Positions 2,903 through 46,062 of a stretch of 47,731 nucleotides of DNA are shown here, piece after piece. Under the pieces are notes generated by a model. The model had not been told where the DNA came from. It worked only from the letters and a program-made list of their open reading frames with translations, and did not search any database. The stretch lies in sequence record PZ445407.1. One strand, 5' to 3'. The stretch's first letter is position 1. Every line of letters starts with the position of its first letter. The translations under genes were made by a program, and so were the position numbers. Source of the stretch: a phage.

Positions 2903-3424
2903 ATGGCAATTCGTTCCGTAGCACTGGCTGGTATGGTTTCTGATACCTCTCTGTATAACATCGACGGCGCTTGCGTAGTTGGTGGTAGTGATGCAATTCC
3001 GGTTGGTACTGTTGTTGGAGTTACATCCGCTCAGCCTGTGGATGGTCACAAGGTTGTTGGCCTCCCTGCTGTGACTGGCACACCAGTTAAACCTTATGGT
3101 GTTGTTGTTAAATCTCATTACGAGACACCGGATGGCACCGCTCGCGTAAATGAAGCAGTTAACGTAATGACTCATGGTCGAATCTGGGTTCGAACCACTT
3201 TAGAAGCTGCGCCAGATTTTGGTAGTAAGGTTTTCGTAAACGCAAGTGGCGTTGTTGCTACCGAAGCAGCAGGCACTACTTGGGAGACTGGCTTTACATT
3301 TGCTGGCGGTTATGTGTCTGCCTATGCTGGCGGCGCCAACCCAATTCAGCAAGGAGAAAGCGTTGATGGTGCACTAGTTGAGGTTCAGCTTATTCAATCC
3401 GCAGACTCAACTGTTGCAGCTTAA
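2903..3424 (+). CDS. putative head structural / decoration protein
   Basis: RBS aaggag; Gly/Val/Thr-rich; followed by terminator hairpin. Confidence 0.35.
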   Translation: MAIRSVALAGMVSDTSLYNIDGACVVGGSDAIPVGTVVGVTSAQPVDGHKVVGLPAVTGTPVKPYGVVVKSHYETPDGTARVNEAVNVMTHGRIWVRTTLEAAPDFGSKVFVNASGVVATEAAGTTWETGFTFAGGYVSAYAGGANPIQQGESVDGALVEVQLIQSADSTVAA

Positions 3425-18300: not shown

Positions 18301-18677
18301 TGGAGCTTGTTGGAACTGGTGATAATGTTCGCAGTCAATTCATTTTTGACGCAAACAGATTCGCAATCAGTAACGGCATTGGTTCTGGTTCCGGTCAGTG
18401 GCAACTCCCCTTCGTTGTCGAGAACGGAAACGTAATCATCCAGAGCGCGGTAATCGGCGATGGCTCAATCAGTAACGCGAAGATTGGAAACTTTATTCAG
18501 TCCAATAACTATGTAGCTAACACTACTGGATGGAGACTTGATAAAGGCGGCACATTCGAGAATAACGGGTTCACACCTGGTGAAGGTAGAATGAAGCAGA
18601 CTAACCAGACAATTTCGGTTGCTGATGCTAACGGAAGGCTTCGTGTTCAGATTGGTCGTTTAACTGGAGTGTACTAA
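15321..18677 (+). CDS. tail tip / central fiber protein (lambda J-like host-specificity protein)
   Basis: ~1119 aa; N-terminus resembles J-type (YGAKGGSQKQ, FRAGTQ); ATG 15321 after gagg. Confidence 0.75.
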   Translation: MAEEIKIYGAKGGSQKQHQPVEQEDNLISLNKVKVLLAVADGEVDPNFSLKDLYLADVPVQNQNGTYNYEGVRAEFRAGTQYQDYIAGLDGANSEIQASREITNDTPYIIAVNNTQLSAIRVKLFWPRLVKQESNGDLVGTTCEYAIDLSVNGGAYQEYTRGVANGKTTTGYDRSIRVNLPAEFDSALVRIRKITADSTSSTLVNGMQITTYQEVIDAKFRYPLTALVYVEFGSDLFPNGIPTISIKKRWKLIQVPTNYNPETRTYSGTWNGLFKMAWSNNPAWVLYDLVTNRRYGLDQRELGVEIDKWGLYEAAQFCDQMVPDGKGGLEPRYLCDMVVQNKVEAYTLIRDICSIFRGLTFYDGEKIGIVVDKPRNPSYIFTNDNVVNGLFSRTFASDKSLYTTANVQFDDVENNYQQDVEPVFELEATRRFGFNPVDLTAIGCTRRSEANRRGRWLLKTNLRSETISFTTGLEGMIPMIGEVIAVNDAAWSSNYQLNLSGRIESVQGLQVFTPFKVDAAPGDRILLNKPDGSPEARTIASVSEDGRTINLNTAFSFVAQPDTVFAIDKDNLALQQYVVTGIQKADSDGSDSFQYTITAVEYDPNKYDEIDYGVNIVDRPTSIVEPDRLSPPENLTVSSYSKIVQGLSVETMVIGWDKAPYAKTYNVQWRKENGNWINVPRTASTEVDIEGIYAGIYDVRVRSVSDTENVSAWSDIVTVSLTGKIGRPSAPTVITASTDEVFGIRVKWGFPEGSGDTAYTELQQVPDNGDGTYNPDNASLLTLLPYPAYEYWHTPIQPGKVIWYRARLIDRIGNTSDWSDFARGMSTDDANIINDYIKVDIEGSEGFKYLEQNAIQKNQDVQNQAEAIIENALANDTDVRRMTKENGARKAEFVQAVNLIADETQARVEALTQLKSQIDDEIVGQITMIETALATETEARATADTQLSARIGDNEAALNQKLDAFSNATSTGVQYGISLGLKYNGQTYSSGMSMELVGTGDNVRSQFIFDANRFAISNGIGSGSGQWQLPFVVENGNVIIQSAVIGDGSISNAKIGNFIQSNNYVANTTGWRLDKGGTFENNGFTPGEGRMKQTNQTISVADANGRLRVQIGRLTGVY

Positions 18678-20062: not shown

Positions 20063-20101
20063 TTTGTACCCCTCATTAAGTTGTTTCGTTTCGATGGAGT
20101 A

Positions 20102-20144
20102 ATAGTATCGCATCCTTGCGAGCAGTGTTTAGCAATTCGTGCTA
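20102..20144 (-). promoter_or_regulatory. palindrome-type promoter on minus strand for small peptide and Cor-like operon
   Basis: Reverse complement reads TAGCA cgaat TGCTA + 22 bp + TACTAT + leader TACTCCATCGAAACGAAAC. Confidence 0.5.
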
Positions 20145-21772: not shown

Positions 21773-21815
21773 CAGCACAAATTGCTAAAGACAAAATTAA
21801 AAGGTGGGGTATGAT
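21773..21815 (+). promoter_or_regulatory. palindrome-type promoter (CAGCA-N5-TGCTA, 22 bp, TATGAT) for erf
   Basis: Direct read; leader TACCCCATCAAAAACGAACGAGG. Confidence 0.5.
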
Positions 21816-21844
21816 TACCCCATCAAAAACGAACGAGGTTAAAG

Positions 21845-22537: not shown

Positions 22538-22957
22538 ATGCACGTAATTACTGGTCAGATTCGCCGCGCTCCATTCACCAAAGAAGGACAGAACGCCAAT
22601 GGTAGCTGGAAAATGTTTGCGGTTGATTTGAGTGAGCGATACAAGGATAAGGATGGTAATAATCATTACACCAACTATCGCGCAGTTTTCTTCGCTAAAG
22701 AGTCAATGTTAGATTGGTATAATGAAGCATTTCAAGAGGGTAAAATTGTTAGCGTTAGCGCTGAAAGCCTGGCTGTTGATGTTCGGGATAAAGATGGCAA
22801 GACTTACGTAACGGTCAATATGAACAACCCTAGACTTGAGTTTAGCCAACGTGGTGATTCAGCACCACAACAGAAGGCGCAAAAGCAACCACAGCAACAG
22901 CAGAATCAACAGCAACCGCAACAGCAACAACAGTTTAATGAAGACATTCCATTCTAA
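22538..22957 (+). CDS. SSB-like single-stranded DNA-binding protein (putative)
   Basis: Gln/Pro-rich linker and C-terminal DIPF tip like bacterial SSB acidic tails. Confidence 0.45.
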   Translation: MHVITGQIRRAPFTKEGQNANGSWKMFAVDLSERYKDKDGNNHYTNYRAVFFAKESMLDWYNEAFQEGKIVSVSAESLAVDVRDKDGKTYVTVNMNNPRLEFSQRGDSAPQQKAQKQPQQQQNQQQPQQQQQFNEDIPF

Positions 22958-22963
22958 ATATAA

Positions 22964-22990
22964 AGCCCCTTTCGGGGCTTTTTTTATTTT
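22964..22990. terminator. bidirectional terminator between SSB-like gene and convergent tail fiber
   Basis: agcccc-tttc-ggggct + TTTTTTT. Confidence 0.6.
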
Positions 22991-25098
22991 GCAATCCAGG
23001 TGCCTGGCGTTCCTGATGATGTGCAAATCCACTTTTCAATAAATGATGTTCCGCTTGGGTTTATGTTGTAAACAATATCACCAGCAACCCAGGTTAATGT
23101 TGTCGGAGCCGCTCCACCATAAGCTGTCGCCCTTGATTTGTTGTCAGTTCTGGTTAAAGATCCAAGTATGCTTGGGTTTGTTGCTGTATCGAATCTATTT
23201 CCATAGAAAGTTAAATATGGAAGCCCATCACCATACATCCTAACTGATGTGTCCGTAGTATTGGCTGATTCATTTCCAATTATAACCATACCTTGTGAAT
23301 TCCATGTTATATTTCTATAAAAACCATCAAAATAACAATTAATTATTGAGTTTTTTGATGTGTTTGCATCTATAGCAACATCCGTAGTTGATTCCCCTCC
23401 ATGAGTGAATCTACAGCCTTTGTATCTTACATTTACACCTCCAAAACCAACTTTTGAACACTCAGCTACAATGTCTGATATCTCAACTCCACCACCTCCA
23501 GAGAAAGAGAAAAGCTGCCCAACATTTGTCGCAGATGAAGAGCTAAATGAGCAGTTGGTCGCGTTATAAAAAGAAACGCATGGAGTTGCGAGCCTATTTC
23601 CAATCTGCTTAAGAACAAAGTTAGAGCAAACTATGTTAGACCCCTGTATTGAAACCATTGCGCTATTGGGTTGCGAGTTCCTGTAAATTGATGTGTTTGA
23701 TAAGTTAATGCTATTTAATCCACCCTCCTCGTTGTAAACATAAACGTCTATTTTTTGGTTGTTTGAAGACTGAACTCCAGATATCAATATTGATGATGAA
23801 CTGGATACATCATCATTCTGCGAGTAAACCCTTAATCCATACTCTGTATTGTTGTTTGTCGTGACATTGGAAACAATTGACCCAACACATCGCCACAACA
23901 AAATACCCCTACCAAGATTGTTAGCTGGAGCAACACCAGTGTTACCATTGTAGTTAAACTTTCCTGATAGTATTGAGTTATTGAAACCATCACGATCTTG
24001 AATTCCGCAAACTAGATTATTAAAAGACCTTGCTTTATCAATGATCATGTTGCGACATGATACCATCCTTAATCCATCTTGTGATCCCTTAGTTATGATG
24101 CAACCATCAACAAGTCCATACTCGCAGTTTTCCAATAGAATCATGTGTCCGTTGCCTGACGTGTTATCAAGACCTGTCCCAACAAATCTACCTCCAATTA
24201 TAGAGAAGTTGTTTGCGTAGCTAGCTCTCCATGCCGCAGTAACCAATTCACTTGTTAGCTGAATAGTTGAAGTGCCAAGCACTATATAATGCCCTGATCT
24301 GATCGTAACCTGCTTGCTTTGAATGTAGGTTCCAGCCGGAAAATAAACATTTAGAGAGGAGTTAAGCGCTGAGATAATGGCGTCAGAATCATCAGTAACA
24401 CCATCACCCTTTGCGCCAAAGTCCTTAACACTAACGAATCCCCTTGATGATATTTCACCCTTTGAGTAAACATCAAGGTTCTGCCTTGCTAGTGGCTTGT
24501 CTGTTAAGTCTGAGAGCGCCAAATCTTTTCTTAGTAGGTTCTGCGTGTCAAGTGACGCCGCATAATCTGCCGCCTCCTGCGCTGAAGTTGCTGCCGCGTC
24601 TTTGGCTGATAGTGCGCTGGTTGCACTTGCTGCCGCTGCATTCTTATCGGTGGTCACTTGGGCGGCATCATTTGCAACCTGTGCCCCAATAGAAACAACA
24701 TCACCATGCTGCGCGTCTACCTGAGCTACCTTTGATTCAAAATCCGCAGAGTCAAAGTTATTGAAAGCATCAACAGCATCTGCAATCTCAGTTTCACGTG
24801 ACTGATAGTAACGCAATGTTTCGGCAACATCCTGAGCTAAACCCTGAACGGTAATCCCATCATGAGCAAGGATCGCGTAACCAGTCCCAGCAGGAACAGT
24901 TTCAGAATTAGGATTATAAACATTAATCTGCGTATCGCTGATAATTTCTGAGATGGTGTAAATTTGTACTGGTTCAGTTTTAAATACAATTGTGGCGCCT
25001 GCCCTGATAAGAGTAAGAGGCGCCTTCCATGTCGTTCCTACGCCAGTCACCTCGCCATTTTCTACTAGTGACGCTGTTCCTAAGTCATAAATTGCCAT
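22984..25098 (-). CDS. tail fiber / tailspike with pectate-lyase-like beta-helix domain
   Basis: Motif VKDFGAKGDGVTDDSDAI followed by Asn/Ser/Gly-rich beta-helix-like repeats; Ala-rich coiled-coil N-terminal part. Confidence 0.65.
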   Translation of the reverse strand: MAIYDLGTASLVENGEVTGVGTTWKAPLTLIRAGATIVFKTEPVQIYTISEIISDTQINVYNPNSETVPAGTGYAILAHDGITVQGLAQDVAETLRYYQSRETEIADAVDAFNNFDSADFESKVAQVDAQHGDVVSIGAQVANDAAQVTTDKNAAAASATSALSAKDAAATSAQEAADYAASLDTQNLLRKDLALSDLTDKPLARQNLDVYSKGEISSRGFVSVKDFGAKGDGVTDDSDAIISALNSSLNVYFPAGTYIQSKQVTIRSGHYIVLGTSTIQLTSELVTAAWRASYANNFSIIGGRFVGTGLDNTSGNGHMILLENCEYGLVDGCIITKGSQDGLRMVSCRNMIIDKARSFNNLVCGIQDRDGFNNSILSGKFNYNGNTGVAPANNLGRGILLWRCVGSIVSNVTTNNNTEYGLRVYSQNDDVSSSSSILISGVQSSNNQKIDVYVYNEEGGLNSINLSNTSIYRNSQPNSAMVSIQGSNIVCSNFVLKQIGNRLATPCVSFYNATNCSFSSSSATNVGQLFSFSGGGGVEISDIVAECSKVGFGGVNVRYKGCRFTHGGESTTDVAIDANTSKNSIINCYFDGFYRNITWNSQGMVIIGNESANTTDTSVRMYGDGLPYLTFYGNRFDTATNPSILGSLTRTDNKSRATAYGGAAPTTLTWVAGDIVYNINPSGTSFIEKWICTSSGTPGTWIAK

Positions 25099-25120
25099 TG
25101 TAAAGTCTCCATTTGTAAAA

Positions 25121-25135
25121 TAGCACAGATTGCTA
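25121..25135 (-). promoter_or_regulatory. palindrome TAGCA cagat TGCTA only ~22 nt upstream of tail fiber start codon (operator-like position)
   Basis: Perfect palindrome but no room for the usual spacer, -10 and leader. Confidence 0.4.
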
Positions 25136-25162
25136 AGTTGGATTGTAGCAGCTTTCAGACAT

Positions 25163-25185
25163 AAAAAAACCTCCCGTGGGAGGTT
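25163..25185 (-). terminator. minus-strand terminator between primase and tail fiber
   Basis: hairpin cctccc-gtg-ggagg with A-run on plus strand. Confidence 0.5.
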
Positions 25186-26107
25186 AGTCTAATAACTCGC
25201 TTGCTTTGTATATTCGCTTTCTTATGCCTGACTTGAAAAAATTATCATCATTTGGTAATACCACATCAAGATTGCGATCGTCAGCAACAGCAAGTAATTC
25301 AAAATTATGGCGAGTACAAGCGATGCGTAACTTGTGGTTTCTAAGCGCGTAAGCAACCATTTCCATATTATAACTGGAGTGACAAACAAGTACGCAGCGG
25401 TTGCCAGTACCAAGATGAACGTGAACACCATCAATCCAATTGTCGACAAGATAAGCGTACTCATCATCTTTAAGAGAGCCAATAACAGCAACTGACTGGC
25501 GAGTGTAATCTTTTGCAGCATAACTAACATCTCCCTCTTCATTGATAAACATTACATTGCACATTTCCTCTGATATACCGTCACTATAAGCCATAAAGCA
25601 CGGTATTGCGTGTATTAGTTCGCCTGATTTTGCTCTACCAACATCAAATCCAAACTCGCTATAGATTCCCTCGTATGTACTGAGTGGGGTTGATTCTACT
25701 CTTTTGGTCCTTCCCATTATCTCCAGGCATCTTTCGTGGTCAATCTGAGCGCCCATCTTGTATGGTGATGTTCTTGATGCTTGCTTGTTTGCTTTGTTAA
25801 CCACCTCGACGGGGATTAGGTTTAACCACTCACCTAGAGCATCGATACATTCGCTGAACGACTCCCCTCGCAGTTTCTGGACCCAAAGAATTCCATCACC
25901 TGAGCCGCATTGGTTGCAAATAATACCACCATCACCAGGCTCGCTAACTTTGTCGGTCCATCTTGCGCGATCGTTTCCGCCGCAATAAATGCATGGTTGA
26001 TGCTTCTTGGTCTGGAAGAACTTTGGGTCAGCGCCGCAGATATTAATAAGTGCCTTATCCCACAGGCCGCGCATTCTTGGTAGAACCTCTTTCTTATCGT
26101 AGTGCAT
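25184..26107 (-). CDS. DNA primase (zinc-binding, putative)
   Basis: N-terminal Cys4 cluster (CIYCGG...CNQCG); replication region. Confidence 0.55.
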   Translation of the reverse strand: MHYDKKEVLPRMRGLWDKALINICGADPKFFQTKKHQPCIYCGGNDRARWTDKVSEPGDGGIICNQCGSGDGILWVQKLRGESFSECIDALGEWLNLIPVEVVNKANKQASRTSPYKMGAQIDHERCLEIMGRTKRVESTPLSTYEGIYSEFGFDVGRAKSGELIHAIPCFMAYSDGISEEMCNVMFINEEGDVSYAAKDYTRQSVAVIGSLKDDEYAYLVDNWIDGVHVHLGTGNRCVLVCHSSYNMEMVAYALRNHKLRIACTRHNFELLAVADDRNLDVVLPNDDNFFKSGIRKRIYKASELLD

Positions 26108-26428: not shown

Positions 26429-26914
26429 TCATCCATGAGATATGTCTTTAGCTTTTCGTGCTGCTTCGTTAGCAGCCTTAATTTTACGCCATGATCGACA
26501 TTCTGGTTTGGTTGCTAACTCGGATTCAGTAACCACACGCAGCATGTGACGCTTTTTGCAACGCAGCGTAAGAGGCTTTCCATTGCCGTCGAATTGCAGA
26601 TCTGGTCGGCAGAATGTAGCGCGAAAACCTTCTCCGGTTCGTTTGTAGTAGTTGTGAGATAGCTGAGCGCCACGTGCAGAGATCATGCCACGCTTAAACC
26701 ACTCTTCTACAGCCTGCGGCGTCACCTTTAACTGCTTTGCGATATTCGCCTTTGTGCCGAAGAAATCAAGGAGCATCTCAAGCCGCGCGCGTAGCCCAGC
26801 CCTTACCTCATCTTTCAAAACGTAGTAACCTGAAGGTCGTTTCCGCTGCTTTTTATCTTCAGTGCGGATGGTTCCGTTATTGCCGTTAGTGGTTCGCTTA
26901 TCAACTGCATTCAT
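26429..26914 (-). CDS. putative HTH DNA-binding regulator
   Basis: Segment IAKQLKVTPQAVEEWFKRGMIS resembles a helix-turn-helix; highly basic protein; divergent from helicase promoter. Confidence 0.45.
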   Translation of the reverse strand: MNAVDKRTTNGNNGTIRTEDKKQRKRPSGYYVLKDEVRAGLRARLEMLLDFFGTKANIAKQLKVTPQAVEEWFKRGMISARGAQLSHNYYKRTGEGFRATFCRPDLQFDGNGKPLTLRCKKRHMLRVVTESELATKPECRSWRKIKAANEAARKAKDISHG

Positions 26915-26926
26915 TTTATTACCTCA

Positions 26927-26968
26927 ATAGCATTTTTTGTTAAAAGTCATTCTGATTTGATGGTAGTA
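26927..26968 (+). promoter_or_regulatory. palindrome-type promoter for helicase (TAGCA-N5-TGTTA, ~21 bp, TAGTAT)
   Basis: Direct read; palindrome lies 13 bp from start codon of divergent HTH gene. Confidence 0.45.
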
Positions 26969-26971
26969 TTG

Positions 26972-27001
26972 TACTCAATTAAACGCTACAAGACAATTTT
27001 T
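26972..27001 (-). promoter_or_regulatory. sigma70-like promoter on minus strand (-35 TTGTCT, 17 bp, -10 TACAAT) for HTH/primase/tail fiber operon
   Basis: Read from reverse complement of divergent intergenic region; coordinates approximate. Confidence 0.35.
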
Positions 27002-29431: not shown

Positions 29432-29471
29432 CACTAATTGCTAAAGAGATTTCGCAGGGATGCGATATAGT
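29429..29471 (+). promoter_or_regulatory. palindrome-type promoter (TAGCA-N5-TGCTA, 22 bp, TATAGT)
   Basis: Direct read; palindrome includes stop codon of upstream gene. Confidence 0.55.
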
Positions 29472-29507
29472 TACTCCATCGAAACGAAACACAGAGAGAG
29501 AAACAAA

Positions 29508-35666: not shown

Positions 35667-35740
35667 TACTTCTCTCCGTGTTGTTTCTGAGCGGCCATTA
35701 TATCAACGGCCGCCTATAATTCATTATCAATTTGTGCTAT

Positions 35741-36476: not shown

Positions 36477-36519
36477 AATATACATGAAAAGCCCCGAAGG
36501 GATTTAGCGATTCGTGCTA
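36477..36519 (-). promoter_or_regulatory. palindrome-type promoter on minus strand with terminator-like hairpin in spacer
   Basis: Reverse complement: TAGCA cgaat CGCTA + 22 bp (contains cccttcgggg hairpin) + TATATT. Confidence 0.45.
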
Positions 36520-37357: not shown

Positions 37358-37373
37358 TTCGTCAGATTTATGG

Positions 37374-37458
37374 ATTGTTGCAGATATTGCAATGATTCAC
37401 ATGATTATTGCACATATAGCAATATTGCTTCAGATGCAATGATGTTTTTGATTGTTGC
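37374..37458. promoter_or_regulatory. cluster of ATTGCA/TGCAAT repeats flanked by direct repeat GATTGTTGC (operator-like)
   Basis: At least six TTGC(A) units within 85 bp of a non-coding region. Confidence 0.3.
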
Positions 37459-37602
37459 GAAAAGTGAAATGAAGGGGTGAGTGAGCGAATGATAGATGGA
37501 TGGACTACCATACAAGTTGATTTTGATTCTTCTTGAGCAACTTTGCGCATACGCGTTATAAAGGTTATGCCATGTAGATGAAATCTCACTCCGCAGGAAT
37601 CG

Positions 37603-37700
37603 TGTACGCCTATCACGCAGGATTACGCAATGGTTACGTAATAATATCTATATATATCAACCTTTTAGTGTTATTATTATTATTATTATTATATACGTGT
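37603..37700. repeat. iteron/AT-rich repeat element copy B (same core, (TTA)7)
   Basis: Direct repeat of copy A; second short conserved block TTACATTGAGCTATA at 37848..37869 vs 20429..20449. Confidence 0.6.
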
Positions 37701-37753
37701 ATATAGTGTAGATAGTGGATATTGGATATTGCGATAGTTTTCTATGATTTTTT

Positions 37754-37786
37754 CCTACACTTGTAGGAATGTGACTACACTGTAGG
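37754..37786. promoter_or_regulatory. two tandem palindromic sites CCTACA-(N1-2)-TGTAGG-AAT (operator-like)
   Basis: cctacacttgtaggaat and ctacactgtaggaat read directly. Confidence 0.35.
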
Positions 37787-37917
37787 AATAAATAGGCATA
37801 TATGGGCCACCCCTCCATAAAAACTTATCTACAATCTGTACACGGCTTTACATTGAGCTATATCTGGGGTTGGTAGCTGAAAAGCGTAAATAAATTGAAT
37901 TCAACCACAAATAACGC

Positions 37918-37946
37918 TTGATAACATGTAACCTCGATGATATTAT
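37918..37946 (+). promoter_or_regulatory. sigma70-like promoter (-35 TTGATA, 17 bp, -10 TATTAT) for 37987..38508
   Basis: Hexamers read directly. Confidence 0.45.
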
Positions 37947-37986
37947 GCACCCATATTAACGAAGGCAACAATCAGGAGTAATATCT

Positions 37987-39067: not shown

Positions 39068-39110
39068 TAGCAATAATTGCTAAACAATTGATCGGGTAGT
39101 CAGCTATGAT
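39068..39110 (+). promoter_or_regulatory. palindrome-type promoter (TAGCA-N5-TGCTA, 22 bp, TATGAT)
   Basis: Direct read; leader TACCCCATCTACAACAAAGAGG. Confidence 0.55.
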
Positions 39111-39134
39111 TACCCCATCTACAACAAAGAGGAA

Positions 39135-40934: not shown

Positions 40935-41567
40935 ATGGCTAAAATAATCATTCTTAATGGACCGGCAGGTATTGGAAAGGACACTATCGGAAACGCGCTT
41001 GCAGCAGATTACAATTGCAACCTGGTAAGTTTCAAGCGTCCTATGTTTGATATCGCATCCTCAATACTAGGCGCTTTAGCCTTCAGCAAATTCATCACCG
41101 CTTATAATGACCGAGATCAGAAAGAGCGTCCTCAGGAATTTCTTGGTGGAAAGACATGCCGTGAGTTCATGATCTGGATTAGCGAATCAGTAGTTAAGCC
41201 GCTTTTAGGCGATAGGCAGTTCGGTAAGTTGATGAGCGAACATATCCAGATGCGTGACGAAGGCTTTACGTTTGTTTGCACTGATGGCGGTTTCCCTGAT
41301 GAGGTTATTCAGCTAGTGGAAGATGGACACGATGTTACCCTTGTACGCTTATTTATGGATGGTAAGACATTCGCTGGCGATAGTCGTGATTACATCCGAA
41401 TCAAGGAATCGCACTTCCCTGATTACCATGCCTACCAGGAGCATGATGTTCATCTAGTCAATGGTGATATTTATGGCGGTGTTCTGTCGGTAGCTGATGC
41501 TTGCGGTATTGGCTCACCAGTTCCAGAGGTTGATGTTTACGAGTGGGAAGATGGATTACCCTGGTAA
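40935..41567 (+). CDS. P-loop nucleotide/nucleoside kinase (dNMP-kinase-like, putative)
   Basis: Walker A GPAGIGKDT at N-terminus. Confidence 0.5.
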   Translation: MAKIIILNGPAGIGKDTIGNALAADYNCNLVSFKRPMFDIASSILGALAFSKFITAYNDRDQKERPQEFLGGKTCREFMIWISESVVKPLLGDRQFGKLMSEHIQMRDEGFTFVCTDGGFPDEVIQLVEDGHDVTLVRLFMDGKTFAGDSRDYIRIKESHFPDYHAYQEHDVHLVNGDIYGGVLSVADACGIGSPVPEVDVYEWEDGLPW

Positions 41568-41568
41568 A

Positions 41569-41610
41569 TAGCACGAATCGCCAAAGCCGCTCCGGCGGGT
41601 TTTGTTATAG
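41569..41610 (+). promoter_or_regulatory. palindrome-type promoter variant with terminator hairpin in spacer (TAGCA-N5-CGCCA, TATAGT)
   Basis: Direct read; hairpin ccgc tccg gcgg + T-run inside spacer. Confidence 0.4.
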
Positions 41611-41643
41611 TTAGTTCACACCAAACGAGAGGAAGTAGAAGAA

Positions 41644-42189: not shown

Positions 42190-42228
42190 CAAGAATTGCT
42201 AAAACAGCATTGGGGTAATTTGTTATAG
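42186..42228 (+). promoter_or_regulatory. palindrome-type promoter (TAGCA-N5-TGCTA, 22 bp, TATAGT)
   Basis: Direct read; leader TACCCCATAGAAACGAATGAGG. Confidence 0.55.
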
Positions 42229-42259
42229 TTACCCCATAGAAACGAATGAGGAAGAAGAG

Positions 42260-43152: not shown

Positions 43153-43350
43153 ATGTGGATCAACATTAAAGAAGAGATGCCTGGCAGCGAGGATGTTTTG
43201 GTTTATTGCTCAGACACAAGAGAGCAGATGGTTGGGTTCCACAAGGGGAGAGGTCTTTTTCAGTTCTTTTTCATGAATGGGGTGGAGGGAGTTTGCAAAC
43301 CAACGCATTGGATGCCGCTACCAGAAGGTCCAGATAGCACGAATTGCTAA
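43153..43350 (+). CDS. hypothetical protein
   Basis: ORF track, RBS agagagag. Confidence 0.4.
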   Translation: MWINIKEEMPGSEDVLVYCSDTREQMVGFHKGRGLFQFFFMNGVEGVCKPTHWMPLPEGPDSTNC

Positions 43351-43377
43351 ACACGCTCGCCACGGATGGCATATAAT
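43335..43377 (+). promoter_or_regulatory. palindrome-type promoter (TAGCA-N5-TGCTA, 22 bp, TATAAT)
   Basis: Direct read; near-duplicate of junction copy. Confidence 0.55.
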
Positions 43378-43407
43378 TACCCCATCAACACAACGAGAGA
43401 TTGAGAG

Positions 43408-44640: not shown

Positions 44641-44718
44641 GCTCTGCTAGCTCAATTGGATAGCAGCAACGACCTTCTAAGTCGTAGGTTACTGGTTCGA
44701 ATCCAGTGCGGAGCGCCA
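44641..44718 (+). tRNA. tRNA-Arg (anticodon UCU), CCA encoded
   Basis: Acceptor stem GCTCTGC/GCGGAGC, anticodon stem ACGAC/GTCGT with loop CTTCTAA, canonical T-arm GGTTCGAATCC, 3' GCCA. Confidence 0.8.
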
Positions 44719-45510: not shown

Positions 45511-45555
45511 ACGCCTGTAACATGGTATAATATAACATCAACAAAGGAGGATTAA

Positions 45556-46062
45556 ATGAGCAAAGCAGCATTAAAGATGGGTGAGGGAAATTTCAAGGCG
45601 CTTTACAACAAGAAGTATGGCGATATTGCGATGGTGGCTATTAACCGCAAGTACACGCCTGAGGAAGTTTTCGATTTCGCTGTTCGATACTTCTCCTGGG
45701 CTGAGACTGAGGCAATCAAAGCAATTGAGACGGCGGCATTCCAGGGTGTGGTTAGTGAGAGCCTTGTGCACAAGCCTCGAGTATTCACATTAACCGGGCT
45801 GGCGCTCTTTATGGGTGTTAATATCAATAGATTCGCACGCTGGCGTACTGAGGCTGGTTACTCTGATGTGATGGAATTCATTGATAACGTAATCTACGAG
45901 CAGAAATACCAGCTTGGCGTTGCTGGTATCATCAACTCCACCATCGTGGGGAAAGAATTGGGAATTGATAAGCCGCAGGAGATTACCATCAGCAACAACT
46001 CCACAGCCAACGACGTTGATAGCATGAAGGAAGCGCTGGAATCTGTTATTAGTAAGCTGTGA
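45556..46062 (+). CDS. terminase small subunit (putative)
   Basis: ~168 aa gene directly upstream of large terminase; RBS aaggagg. Confidence 0.55.
   Translation: MSKAALKMGEGNFKALYNKKYGDIAMVAINRKYTPEEVFDFAVRYFSWAETEAIKAIETAAFQGVVSESLVHKPRVFTLTGLALFMGVNINRFARWRTEAGYSDVMEFIDNVIYEQKYQLGVAGIINSTIVGKELGIDKPQEITISNNSTANDVDSMKEALESVISKL

Follow-up and report, generated by a model that had tools for sequence, protein, structure and literature searches.

How is a tail-fibre gene transcribed when it lies on the minus strand inside the replication region of a strictly lytic phage, with a terminator at either end, and what does a copy of a phage-wide repeat do when it stands just ahead of that gene's start codon? 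The question is raised by a locus in the genome of a Braunvirinae (T1-like) coliphage of the Drexlerviridae (sequence record PZ445407.1), whose full stretch of 47,731 nucleotides, referred to here as the window, holds a complete T1-like gene set. In the related phage TLS, a 21-nt direct repeat, aaATAGCACnnnTTGnTAAAA, occurs at 21 places, 18 of them intergenic, pointing along transcription about 76 nt before start codons; it is also present in T1, Rtp and Rogue1, and its function was left open by the authors, who considered a stoperator, an enhancer or an UP-like element in a genome with only three consensus sigma70 promoters (German, Kropinski and Misra, PMC11447400). Transcription of the tail-fibre gene was itself doubted altogether by the authors of the SU57 genome, who cited the terminator (PMC7718038). 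We give an even chance to the following answer, drawn from the sequence: that the gene forms an autonomous, insulated unit with its own promoter, in which the repeat, at +1 to +15, would be an operator damping that promoter, and that the same factor would stimulate other promoters from -42.

The insulation of the gene was asserted by a first-pass annotation of this DNA, which described a terminator hairpin separating it from the upstream primase and a bidirectional terminator at its end, and both are found where they had been placed. The hairpin of the primase operon folds at -12.3 kcal/mol (z = -3.3 against shuffled controls), its stem overlaps the primase stop codon (25186..25184), and hairpin and T-run are kept in all 17 aligned relatives. 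The downstream hairpin (22962..22981) folds on both strands, the minus-strand form (-14.9 kcal/mol) being slightly more stable than the plus-strand form (-13.5 kcal/mol). Both structures fold well below shuffled controls and show the G+C-rich hairpin and following U-tract of rho-independent terminators. Transcription purely by read-through from the primase operon thus appears unlikely, because a strong terminator is combined with a conserved, dedicated promoter, described below.

That promoter and its repeat are best understood against the rest of the repeat family. The window has seven exact matches to TAGCA-N5-TGCTA, where 0.02 would be expected by chance, and 17 matches if one mismatch is allowed, where 1.9 would be expected. 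With the element read as TAGCAC..TTGCTAAA, a -10-like hexamer (TATAGT, TATAAT, TATGAT and similar) follows exactly 22 bp downstream of 13 of these 17 copies and at 21 or 23 bp from three more; hexamers of this kind have a background frequency of 2% per position. The canonical copies have no TTG-type -35 box, and the 22-bp spacing puts the centre of the 15-mer at about -42. Class II activator-dependent promoters include those with CRP or FNR at -41.5, lambda cI at OR2, and Mu Mor or C; the canonical geometry resembles such a site, an analogy that suggests activation. A matrix built from 50 canonical sites in four genomes (the window, JeanPiccard, Vibrio phage Vc1 and Klebsiella phage NJS1) describes an asymmetric element, aAAATAGCAC-(G/T)WW-TTGYTAAA, that is palindromic only in its 5+5 core. 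A further conserved stretch, TTACCCCATCgAAACGA, comes after the canonical -10 and would there supply a C-rich discriminator as well as the start of the mRNA.

The copy at the tail fibre departs from this pattern. The perfect TAGCA-N5-TGCTA that had been reported some 22 nt before the ATG does lie there, separated from it (25098) by exactly 22 nt; relative to the TLS consensus its core matches at 15 of 15 positions and only the last two A's differ on the plus strand, 19 positions in all being matched. The full element reads aaaaTAGCACagaTTGCTAAg on the plus strand, and this copy is therefore inverted with respect to transcription of the tail fibre. It is the sole copy among the 17 with no -10-like hexamer at 20-25 bp in either orientation, as is also the case in JeanPiccard, which agrees with the earlier view that the palindrome is too close to the ATG for the usual spacer, -10 and leader. 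Neither the orientation along transcription nor the distances of the canonical family (about 76 nt before the start codon, 22 bp before the -10) are found here, nor is the class II position near -41.5 that the canonical copies are predicted to occupy.

Upstream of the repeat stands a previously unremarked TGcTACAAT, a predicted extended -10 promoter in which TGn adjoins a hexamer with A2 and T6, and which has no -35 box, the T-run of the terminator filling that position. The repeat begins 6 bp after it, at the expected start site, and so covers about +1 to +15 of the predicted transcript, within the footprint of the polymerase (-10 to +20). In the direction of the gene the region reads terminator-T7-atgtctgaaagc-TGcTACAAT-ccaact-TAGCAATCTGTGCTA-ttttacaaat-GGAG-actttaca-ATG, and a purine-rich block is found at the Shine-Dalgarno place in the aligned relatives as well. 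The suggestion that the palindrome overlaps the transcribed 5' region is in keeping with this predicted start. An operator-like position in an insulated unit thus survives from the first-pass annotation, and its treatment of the element as a plain palindrome does not, the element being asymmetric outside the core and inverted here. As to timing, early or constant low-level expression that is subsequently damped would fit at least as well as the late or delayed expression it had proposed, because the promoter looks activator-independent.

Conservation was assessed in regions upstream of tail-fibre genes taken from 80 IMG/VR contigs, by alignment of the N-terminal domain, and from several GenBank phages, giving 74 distinct sequences. 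A terminator followed by TGnTAnnnT precedes the ATG in most of these, and 12 of 13 lineage representatives combine TGn with a -10 that matches at 5/6 or better. The repeat is found in 30 of the 74, in lineages that include the Braunvirinae with Rtp, Tunavirus with T1 and Shfl1, a Yersinia phage, Enterobacter-type phages and several others; it follows the -10 by 6, 7 or, in one lineage, 12 bp, and has the same inverted orientation in 29 of the 30. This looser spacing, compared with the strict 22 bp at canonical sites, fits steric interference better than activation. An intergenic alignment of 17 sequences, which takes in Rtp, T1 and phages of Yersinia and Enterobacter as divergent relatives, has its invariant columns in three places: in stem bases and T-run of the terminator, in the extended -10 (TG-TA-A-T) and in the repeat (TTA-CAA...GTGCTA). 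Variation is seen in the leader, in the flanking codons and in the bases that separate promoter from repeat. Where present, the repeat at the tail fibre is, on this comparative evidence, under selection at a position locked to the predicted start site.

The promoter is also kept where the repeat is not. Webervirus, which carries canonical copies elsewhere in its genome, and the L029 group have the extended -10 and no repeat at the tail fibre, and TLS has there a plain -10 (CATAAT) and no repeat, in agreement with the published table of its repeats (PMC11447400). The promoter therefore appears to be independent of the repeat, whose role is then more likely to be modulatory or negative. In T1 the tail-fibre promoter has a -35 box in addition (TTGCAA, 17-bp spacer). 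In phage morffagbaw (L016 2385..2440) and in L077, the extended -10 of the tail fibre (TGcTATTAT) overlaps TTAGCAAATGCTA, which has the same half-sites as the repeat, spaced by 2 bp instead of 5.

Coordinates of the tail-fibre unit, its primase neighbour and the regulator locus in the window (a point marks a site given without strand)
Feature	Position	Strand	Basis or detail
Palindromic core of the Drexlerviridae promoter-associated repeat, perfect, TAGCAcagatTGCTA / TAGCACAGATTGCTA	25121..25135	.	Motif count, relatives, alignment
Predicted extended -10 sigma70 promoter of the tail fibre, TGcTACAAT	25142..25150	-	5/6 match to -10; conserved in relatives
Shine-Dalgarno GGAG	25107..25110	-	8 nt before tail-fibre ATG; read from sequence
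Lateral tail-fibre / tailspike gene, 704 aa	22984..25098	-	Pfam and PHROGs profile matches
Intrinsic terminator of the primase operon	25163..25185	-	7-bp stem AACCTCC/GGAGGTT (25185..25168), loop CACG, T7 (25169..25163)
Bidirectional intrinsic terminator common to tail fibre (-) and ssb (+)	22962..22988	both	8-bp stem, T-runs on both strands
DNA primase gene, upstream neighbour of tail fibre	25184..26107	-	Pfam Zn_Ribbon_Prim 5.5e-10; primase annotation in relatives
161-aa Cro/cI-type helix-turn-helix protein, Drexlerviridae only; candidate reader of the repeat	26429..26914	-	Family and fold comparison
Second non-canonical use of the repeat, TAGCATTTTTTGTTA	26928..26942	.	Canonical for helicase promoter (+), inverted in regulator leader
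Predicted sigma70 promoter of the regulator gene, TTGTCT-17-TACAAT	26968..26996	-	Sequence match

In the arrangement proposed, the order of the unit would be primase terminator, extended -10, inverted repeat, ribosome-binding site, open reading frame (ORF) and bidirectional terminator, and the tail fibre would be transcribed from its own activator-independent sigma70 promoter rather than by read-through. A protein reading the repeat would bind at +1 to +15 and compete with RNA polymerase, reducing initiation or promoter escape because it would occupy DNA that the polymerase must cover, and could also stop any polymerase that had passed the primase terminator. A single factor would thereby raise some 15 promoters from -42 and lower that of the tail fibre, together with that of the Cro-like regulator, where an inverted repeat likewise lies between a sigma70 promoter and a ribosome-binding site. 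The fibre may then be an early gene that is later damped, or a low-copy component of the virion that is held low as genome copies rise. The sequence elements, their spacing and their selective conservation are directly visible in the DNA; from these we infer all three essentials, namely the firing of the extended -10, the binding of a protein at the repeat and its negative effect.

Several points weigh against this proposal. A search of the literature found no transcriptomes, start sites, binding assays or reporter assays for promoters of the Drexlerviridae, so that activity, start and direction of regulation are predictions. The same factor would stimulate promoters in the tail-gene region (7730, 12122 and 13383) yet repress a structural gene, the logic of which is not obvious. 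The conserved inverted orientation may stem from common descent rather than function. The presumed recognition helix of the candidate regulator is among its least conserved parts (TPQAVEEW, SQQTVNQW, CCVRLTNAY). Finally, the repeat could be a site of repression at every copy, a possibility that leads directly to the alternatives.

In that alternative, a repressor or "stoperator"-like roadblock would act at each copy, that of the tail fibre included, and the canonical promoters would be weak sigma70 promoters whose -35-like TAAACA lies inside the repeat. The 3' end of the element and its flank, TGCTAAACA, indeed supply TAAACA at an 18-bp spacer with 4/6 matches to TTGACA, which would itself set the fixed 22 bp; the stoperator idea was raised for TLS (PMC11447400), and the candidate protein has the fold of Cro, a family of repressors. 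The hexamer, however, lacks the critical TTG, and with copies preceding early, replication and tail genes alike, global repression of almost every recognisable promoter would yield no programme of expression; moreover, the shortage of consensus sigma70 promoters in TLS implies that something must switch on the repeat-associated promoters for most genes to be expressed. We consider repression throughout unlikely. The antisense use of the site is far less probable still: the canonical reading, aaaaTAGCACagaTTGCTAA, would drive RNA from the plus strand against the 3' end of the primase gene, in accord with the plus-strand orientation of 29 of the 30 distinct sequences and with a CATAAA/TATAAA hexamer 24 bp downstream. 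Against it, that hexamer varies (C/T) within the Braunvirinae, no -10-like hexamer with A2 and T6 occurs at 20-25 bp in the window or JeanPiccard (T1 has TACCTG at 22 bp), and the conserved stretch after the -10, TTACCCCATC, is missing. The same strand carries a 10/12 sigma70-like match, TTGCCA-18-TAAAAT (25092..25121), which runs across the tail-fibre start codon up to the repeat; its spacer is 20 bp in relatives, T1 has no equivalent, and it is probably due to chance.

Two further readings dispense with a regulatory protein at the DNA. The palindrome could function as RNA, a 5'-terminal hairpin in the first 15 nt of the message that stabilises the transcript or tunes translation, and the predicted start does place it at the very 5' end; on its own the 15-mer has a folding energy of -3.0 kcal/mol (z = -2.1). 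Within the leader, however, the fold reaches -3.8 kcal/mol with z = -0.18, 84 of 200 shuffled sequences folding at least as well, and the stems show no compensatory changes: TAGCA and TGCTA are identical in all lineages and the loop varies, which is the signature of a site for protein on DNA and leaves an RNA function scarcely probable. Lastly, the copy could have no regulatory role, as a relic of the rearrangement that brought the tail-fibre gene alongside the primase gene, or a conserved linker that aids recombinational exchange of tail-fibre modules. Gene order does differ between Webervirus (regulator-primase-exo-erf-ssb-tail fibre, on one strand) and T1 or the Braunvirinae, the C-terminal part of the fibre is mosaic behind a conserved upstream region and N-terminal domain, and three lineages dispense with the repeat. 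A relic would nevertheless decay, yet the repeat and the extended -10 are the sole invariant intergenic blocks besides the terminator, and the position of the repeat is locked to the -10 even where flanks cannot be aligned, the 6-7 bp spacer and the leader having diverged; this too seems very unlikely, if a little less so than the antisense and RNA readings.

Other candidate signals were tried and set aside. TGcTATTTT (25124..25116), composed of the right half of the repeat and a T-tract, is confined to the Braunvirinae as a possible promoter, has a T1 counterpart (TGcTATTTA) without T6, and would leave a leader of just ~12 nt. A sigma54 promoter in TGGCAC-N5-TTGCA has a GG-GC spacing off by 2 bp and is followed by a sigma70-type -10. 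The CCCCAT after many canonical -10s resembles the -10 of sigma32 promoters, with no TTGAAA 13-15 bp upstream. The TTGCTAAA part of the repeat resembles the T4 MotA box, TTTGCTTTA, but sits at ~-38 and not -30, and no MotA or AsiA was found among the scanned ORFs. An intergenic mini-ORF, ATGTCTGAAAGCTGCTACAATCCAACTTAG, has its ATG replaced by ATA in several relatives.

If the repeat is read as proposed, by one factor with opposite effects at -42 and at +1, candidates for that factor would be the phage Cro-like protein and the host protein Lrp. In the first case, the leader of the protein's own gene carries the repeat, and Pfam and PHROGs scans of 20 further ORF queries from the window revealed no other transcription factor. 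Phages of Escherichia, Klebsiella and Vibrio share one and the same repeat, and an invariant repeat with a variable recognition helix is the opposite of what would be expected if that helix read it; likewise, a covariation of helix and repeat was sought and the pairing left unsupported, the repeat being the same in Vibrio phage Vc1 and Klebsiella phage NJS1 and the helix different. The parts of the protein that are near-invariant across the Drexlerviridae are an N-terminal arm, predicted to be disordered (DKRTxNGNNGTxRGxDKKxRKRP), and the C-terminal FCRPDLxFDxNGKPL.

For Lrp, a consensus of yAGhAwATTwTdCTr was obtained with the E. coli protein by SELEX (systematic evolution of ligands by exponential enrichment; Cui et al. 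1995, as quoted in PMC5554404), and the Lrp proteins of E. coli and Vibrio vulnificus share 91% identity (PMC5554404), a conservation that would fit the occurrence of one repeat in phages of Escherichia, Klebsiella and Vibrio. Site and repeat are both 15 bp long, all ten outer positions agree (TAGCA with yAGhA, TGCTA with TdCTr), and the centre of the repeat is mostly A/T; the copy at the tail fibre fits at 12 of 15 positions on either strand. In the window the outer pattern is found at 20 places, compared with 3.4 in shuffled sequence, a count that mostly restates the repeat family, and the fit of the outer ten concerns the core TAGCA-N5-TGCTA, for example at 43335..43349. On the other hand, each of the 50 canonical copies departs from the full consensus at 2-6 positions, position 6 is a non-consensus C in 80% of them, position 13 (consensus C) is T, A or G in 46%, and Lrp commonly works through arrays of sites. 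The literature search produced no report tying Lrp to T1-like phages. We treat it as a lead, and judge it improbable, that host Lrp rather than a phage protein reads the repeat, with ~15-20 promoters per genome wired to a single Lrp dimer site at -42 and the same site, inverted at +1, restraining tail fibre and regulator; were it so, phage transcription and tail-fibre dosage would be coupled to the feast or famine state of the host.

The regulator gene and the divergent helicase gene provide the second instance of an inverted copy. In the leader of the former, the predicted promoter (26996..26968) is followed by 25 nt, the inverted repeat TAACAAAAAATGCTA, GAGG, and an ATG 13 nt after the repeat, and the -10 of the helicase (TATTGT, plus strand) uses the same base pairs as that of the regulator (TACAAT, minus strand). 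T1 has TTGAAT-17-TATAAT, 23 nt, a perfect TAGCAAAAAGTGCTA and a ribosome-binding site, and in TLS promoter P57 precedes repeat DR11, according to published coordinates (PMC11447400). The order of promoter, inverted repeat and ribosome-binding site is kept in the window, in 5 of the 9 IMG/VR relatives listed, in T1 and in TLS. From its layout, the region looks like a compact divergent switch with negative feedback on the regulator gene.

Several characterised systems bear comparison with the tail-fibre site. It belongs to the same sequence family as the 21-nt repeats of TLS, T1 and Rtp, which are likewise intergenic and distributed phage-wide; the TLS repeats run along transcription, whereas the tail-fibre copy is inverted and downstream of its promoter, and TLS itself has none at this gene. 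Lambda cI activates PRM from OR2 at about -42, with OR1 and OR2 lying over PR, and phi29 p4 and CRP at class II versus repressing positions offer further instances of one protein with either effect. The likeness is that one type of dyad would stimulate from near -42 in the absence of a good -35 and block over a start site, and the regulator-helicase pair, with its shared -10 base pairs, is like a small divergent switch. The phage here, however, is strictly lytic, the element is asymmetric outside its 5+5 core, its ~15 dispersed activator-type copies are far more numerous, and the site is known from sequence. In phage Mu, the activators Mor and C bind a dyad near -43.5 of middle and late promoters that have a -10 and no -35. 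That geometry matches the canonical copies, but no Mor/C homologue was found here, the candidate having a Cro-type helix-turn-helix fold, and we know of no reuse of such a site as an operator at a tail-fibre gene in Mu. The stoperators of mycobacteriophage L5 (Brown et al. 1997, as cited in PMC11447400) are also short asymmetric sites, in one orientation, within transcribed DNA, and both within-transcript copies here are inverted alike; they differ in being bound by a prophage repressor that silences a lysogen, the present phage being virulent and most of its copies lying upstream of promoters.

The repeat family as such was therefore already known, and the regulatory logic, one type of site activating from -42 and repressing at +1, is classical; the strict 22-bp geometry, the asymmetry and the two operator-type placements have not been described in the literature searched. 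T1-like phages are very common, with hundreds of sequenced genomes (~800-900 records matched), and are widely used in therapy collections, and transcription in the Drexlerviridae is essentially uncharted, few sigma70 promoters being recognisable. What emerges is a testable architecture, with the repeat at a fixed -42 at most promoters and two conserved exceptions, at the tail fibre and the regulator, downstream of an activator-independent promoter. If correct, it would provide a one-factor, two-outcome circuit for the Drexlerviridae, explain how a receptor-binding fibre is expressed from inside the replication region, and identify the promoter and operator that any change of host range by exchange of tail-fibre genes has to retain or redesign.

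A megablast search with 22800..25500 matched 95 phage records, almost all Escherichia phages of the Drexlerviridae (Braunvirinae: SU57, JeanPiccard and Rtp-like). The fibre protein combines an N-terminal anchor that is conserved (aa 1-~110) with a pectate-lyase/beta-helix domain (aa ~221-429), with matches to Pfam PF12708 (4.4e-11) and PF13229 and to PHROGs tail fibre (2.6e-59). Late genes occupy the plus strand, starting with the small terminase at 45556 and continuing round to the tail tip at 18677. They are joined on that strand by the exo/erf/ssb block, of which Erf recombinase and ssb are the downstream neighbours of the tail fibre (family scan; SU57 annotation). Tail fibre, primase and the 161-aa regulator follow on the minus strand, and then the helicase on the plus strand, lysis genes and many small early genes.

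Some features of individual repeat copies may be recorded. Canonical promoters share TAtAgT-TACCCCATCgAAACGAa (29465..29490, 43371..43395, 42223..42247, 39104..39128, 21809..21833 and, on the minus strand, 20108..20085). The 22-bp spacer between repeat and -10 often carries the terminator hairpin of the upstream gene, such as aatCCCCTTCGGGGcttttcatg (36519..36480 and 35739..35690 on the minus strand, 41567..41611 on the plus strand); terminator and next promoter are therefore interleaved, the repeat lying within the transcribed DNA of the preceding unit. An order like that of the tail fibre, a terminator hairpin and then an extended -10, recurs on the plus strand with TGgTATAAT (45523..45531) ahead of the small terminase gene and with TGtTATAGT (41603..41611) ahead of 41644. 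The latter locus (41567..41611) had been entertained as a natural exchange of the repeat for a TG extended -10, and proved to have a repeat with two mismatches 22 bp upstream. A 15-mer with one mismatch, TAGCACTGGCTGGTA (2919..2933, plus strand), falls within the 5' end of a structural gene (2903..3424), with TAACAT 22 bp downstream; JeanPiccard has it at the same location (L098 5007..5021), and it may reflect coding constraint or an internal promoter.

Elsewhere in the window, a tRNA-Arg gene (anticodon TCT) is found at 44641..44718 on the plus strand, as in JeanPiccard. Between divergent blocks of early genes lies a mostly non-coding stretch of ~620 bp (37360..37986), with a single 82-aa ORF without family matches, which may represent an early control region, an origin or a genome-end region. 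It contains TGCAAT...ATTGCA dyads (~37389..37412), a (TTA)n run (37672..37692) and two direct copies of CTACACTnGTAGGAAT (37758..37790), and is closed by a strong sigma70-type promoter, TTGATA-17-TGaTATTAT (37918..37946).

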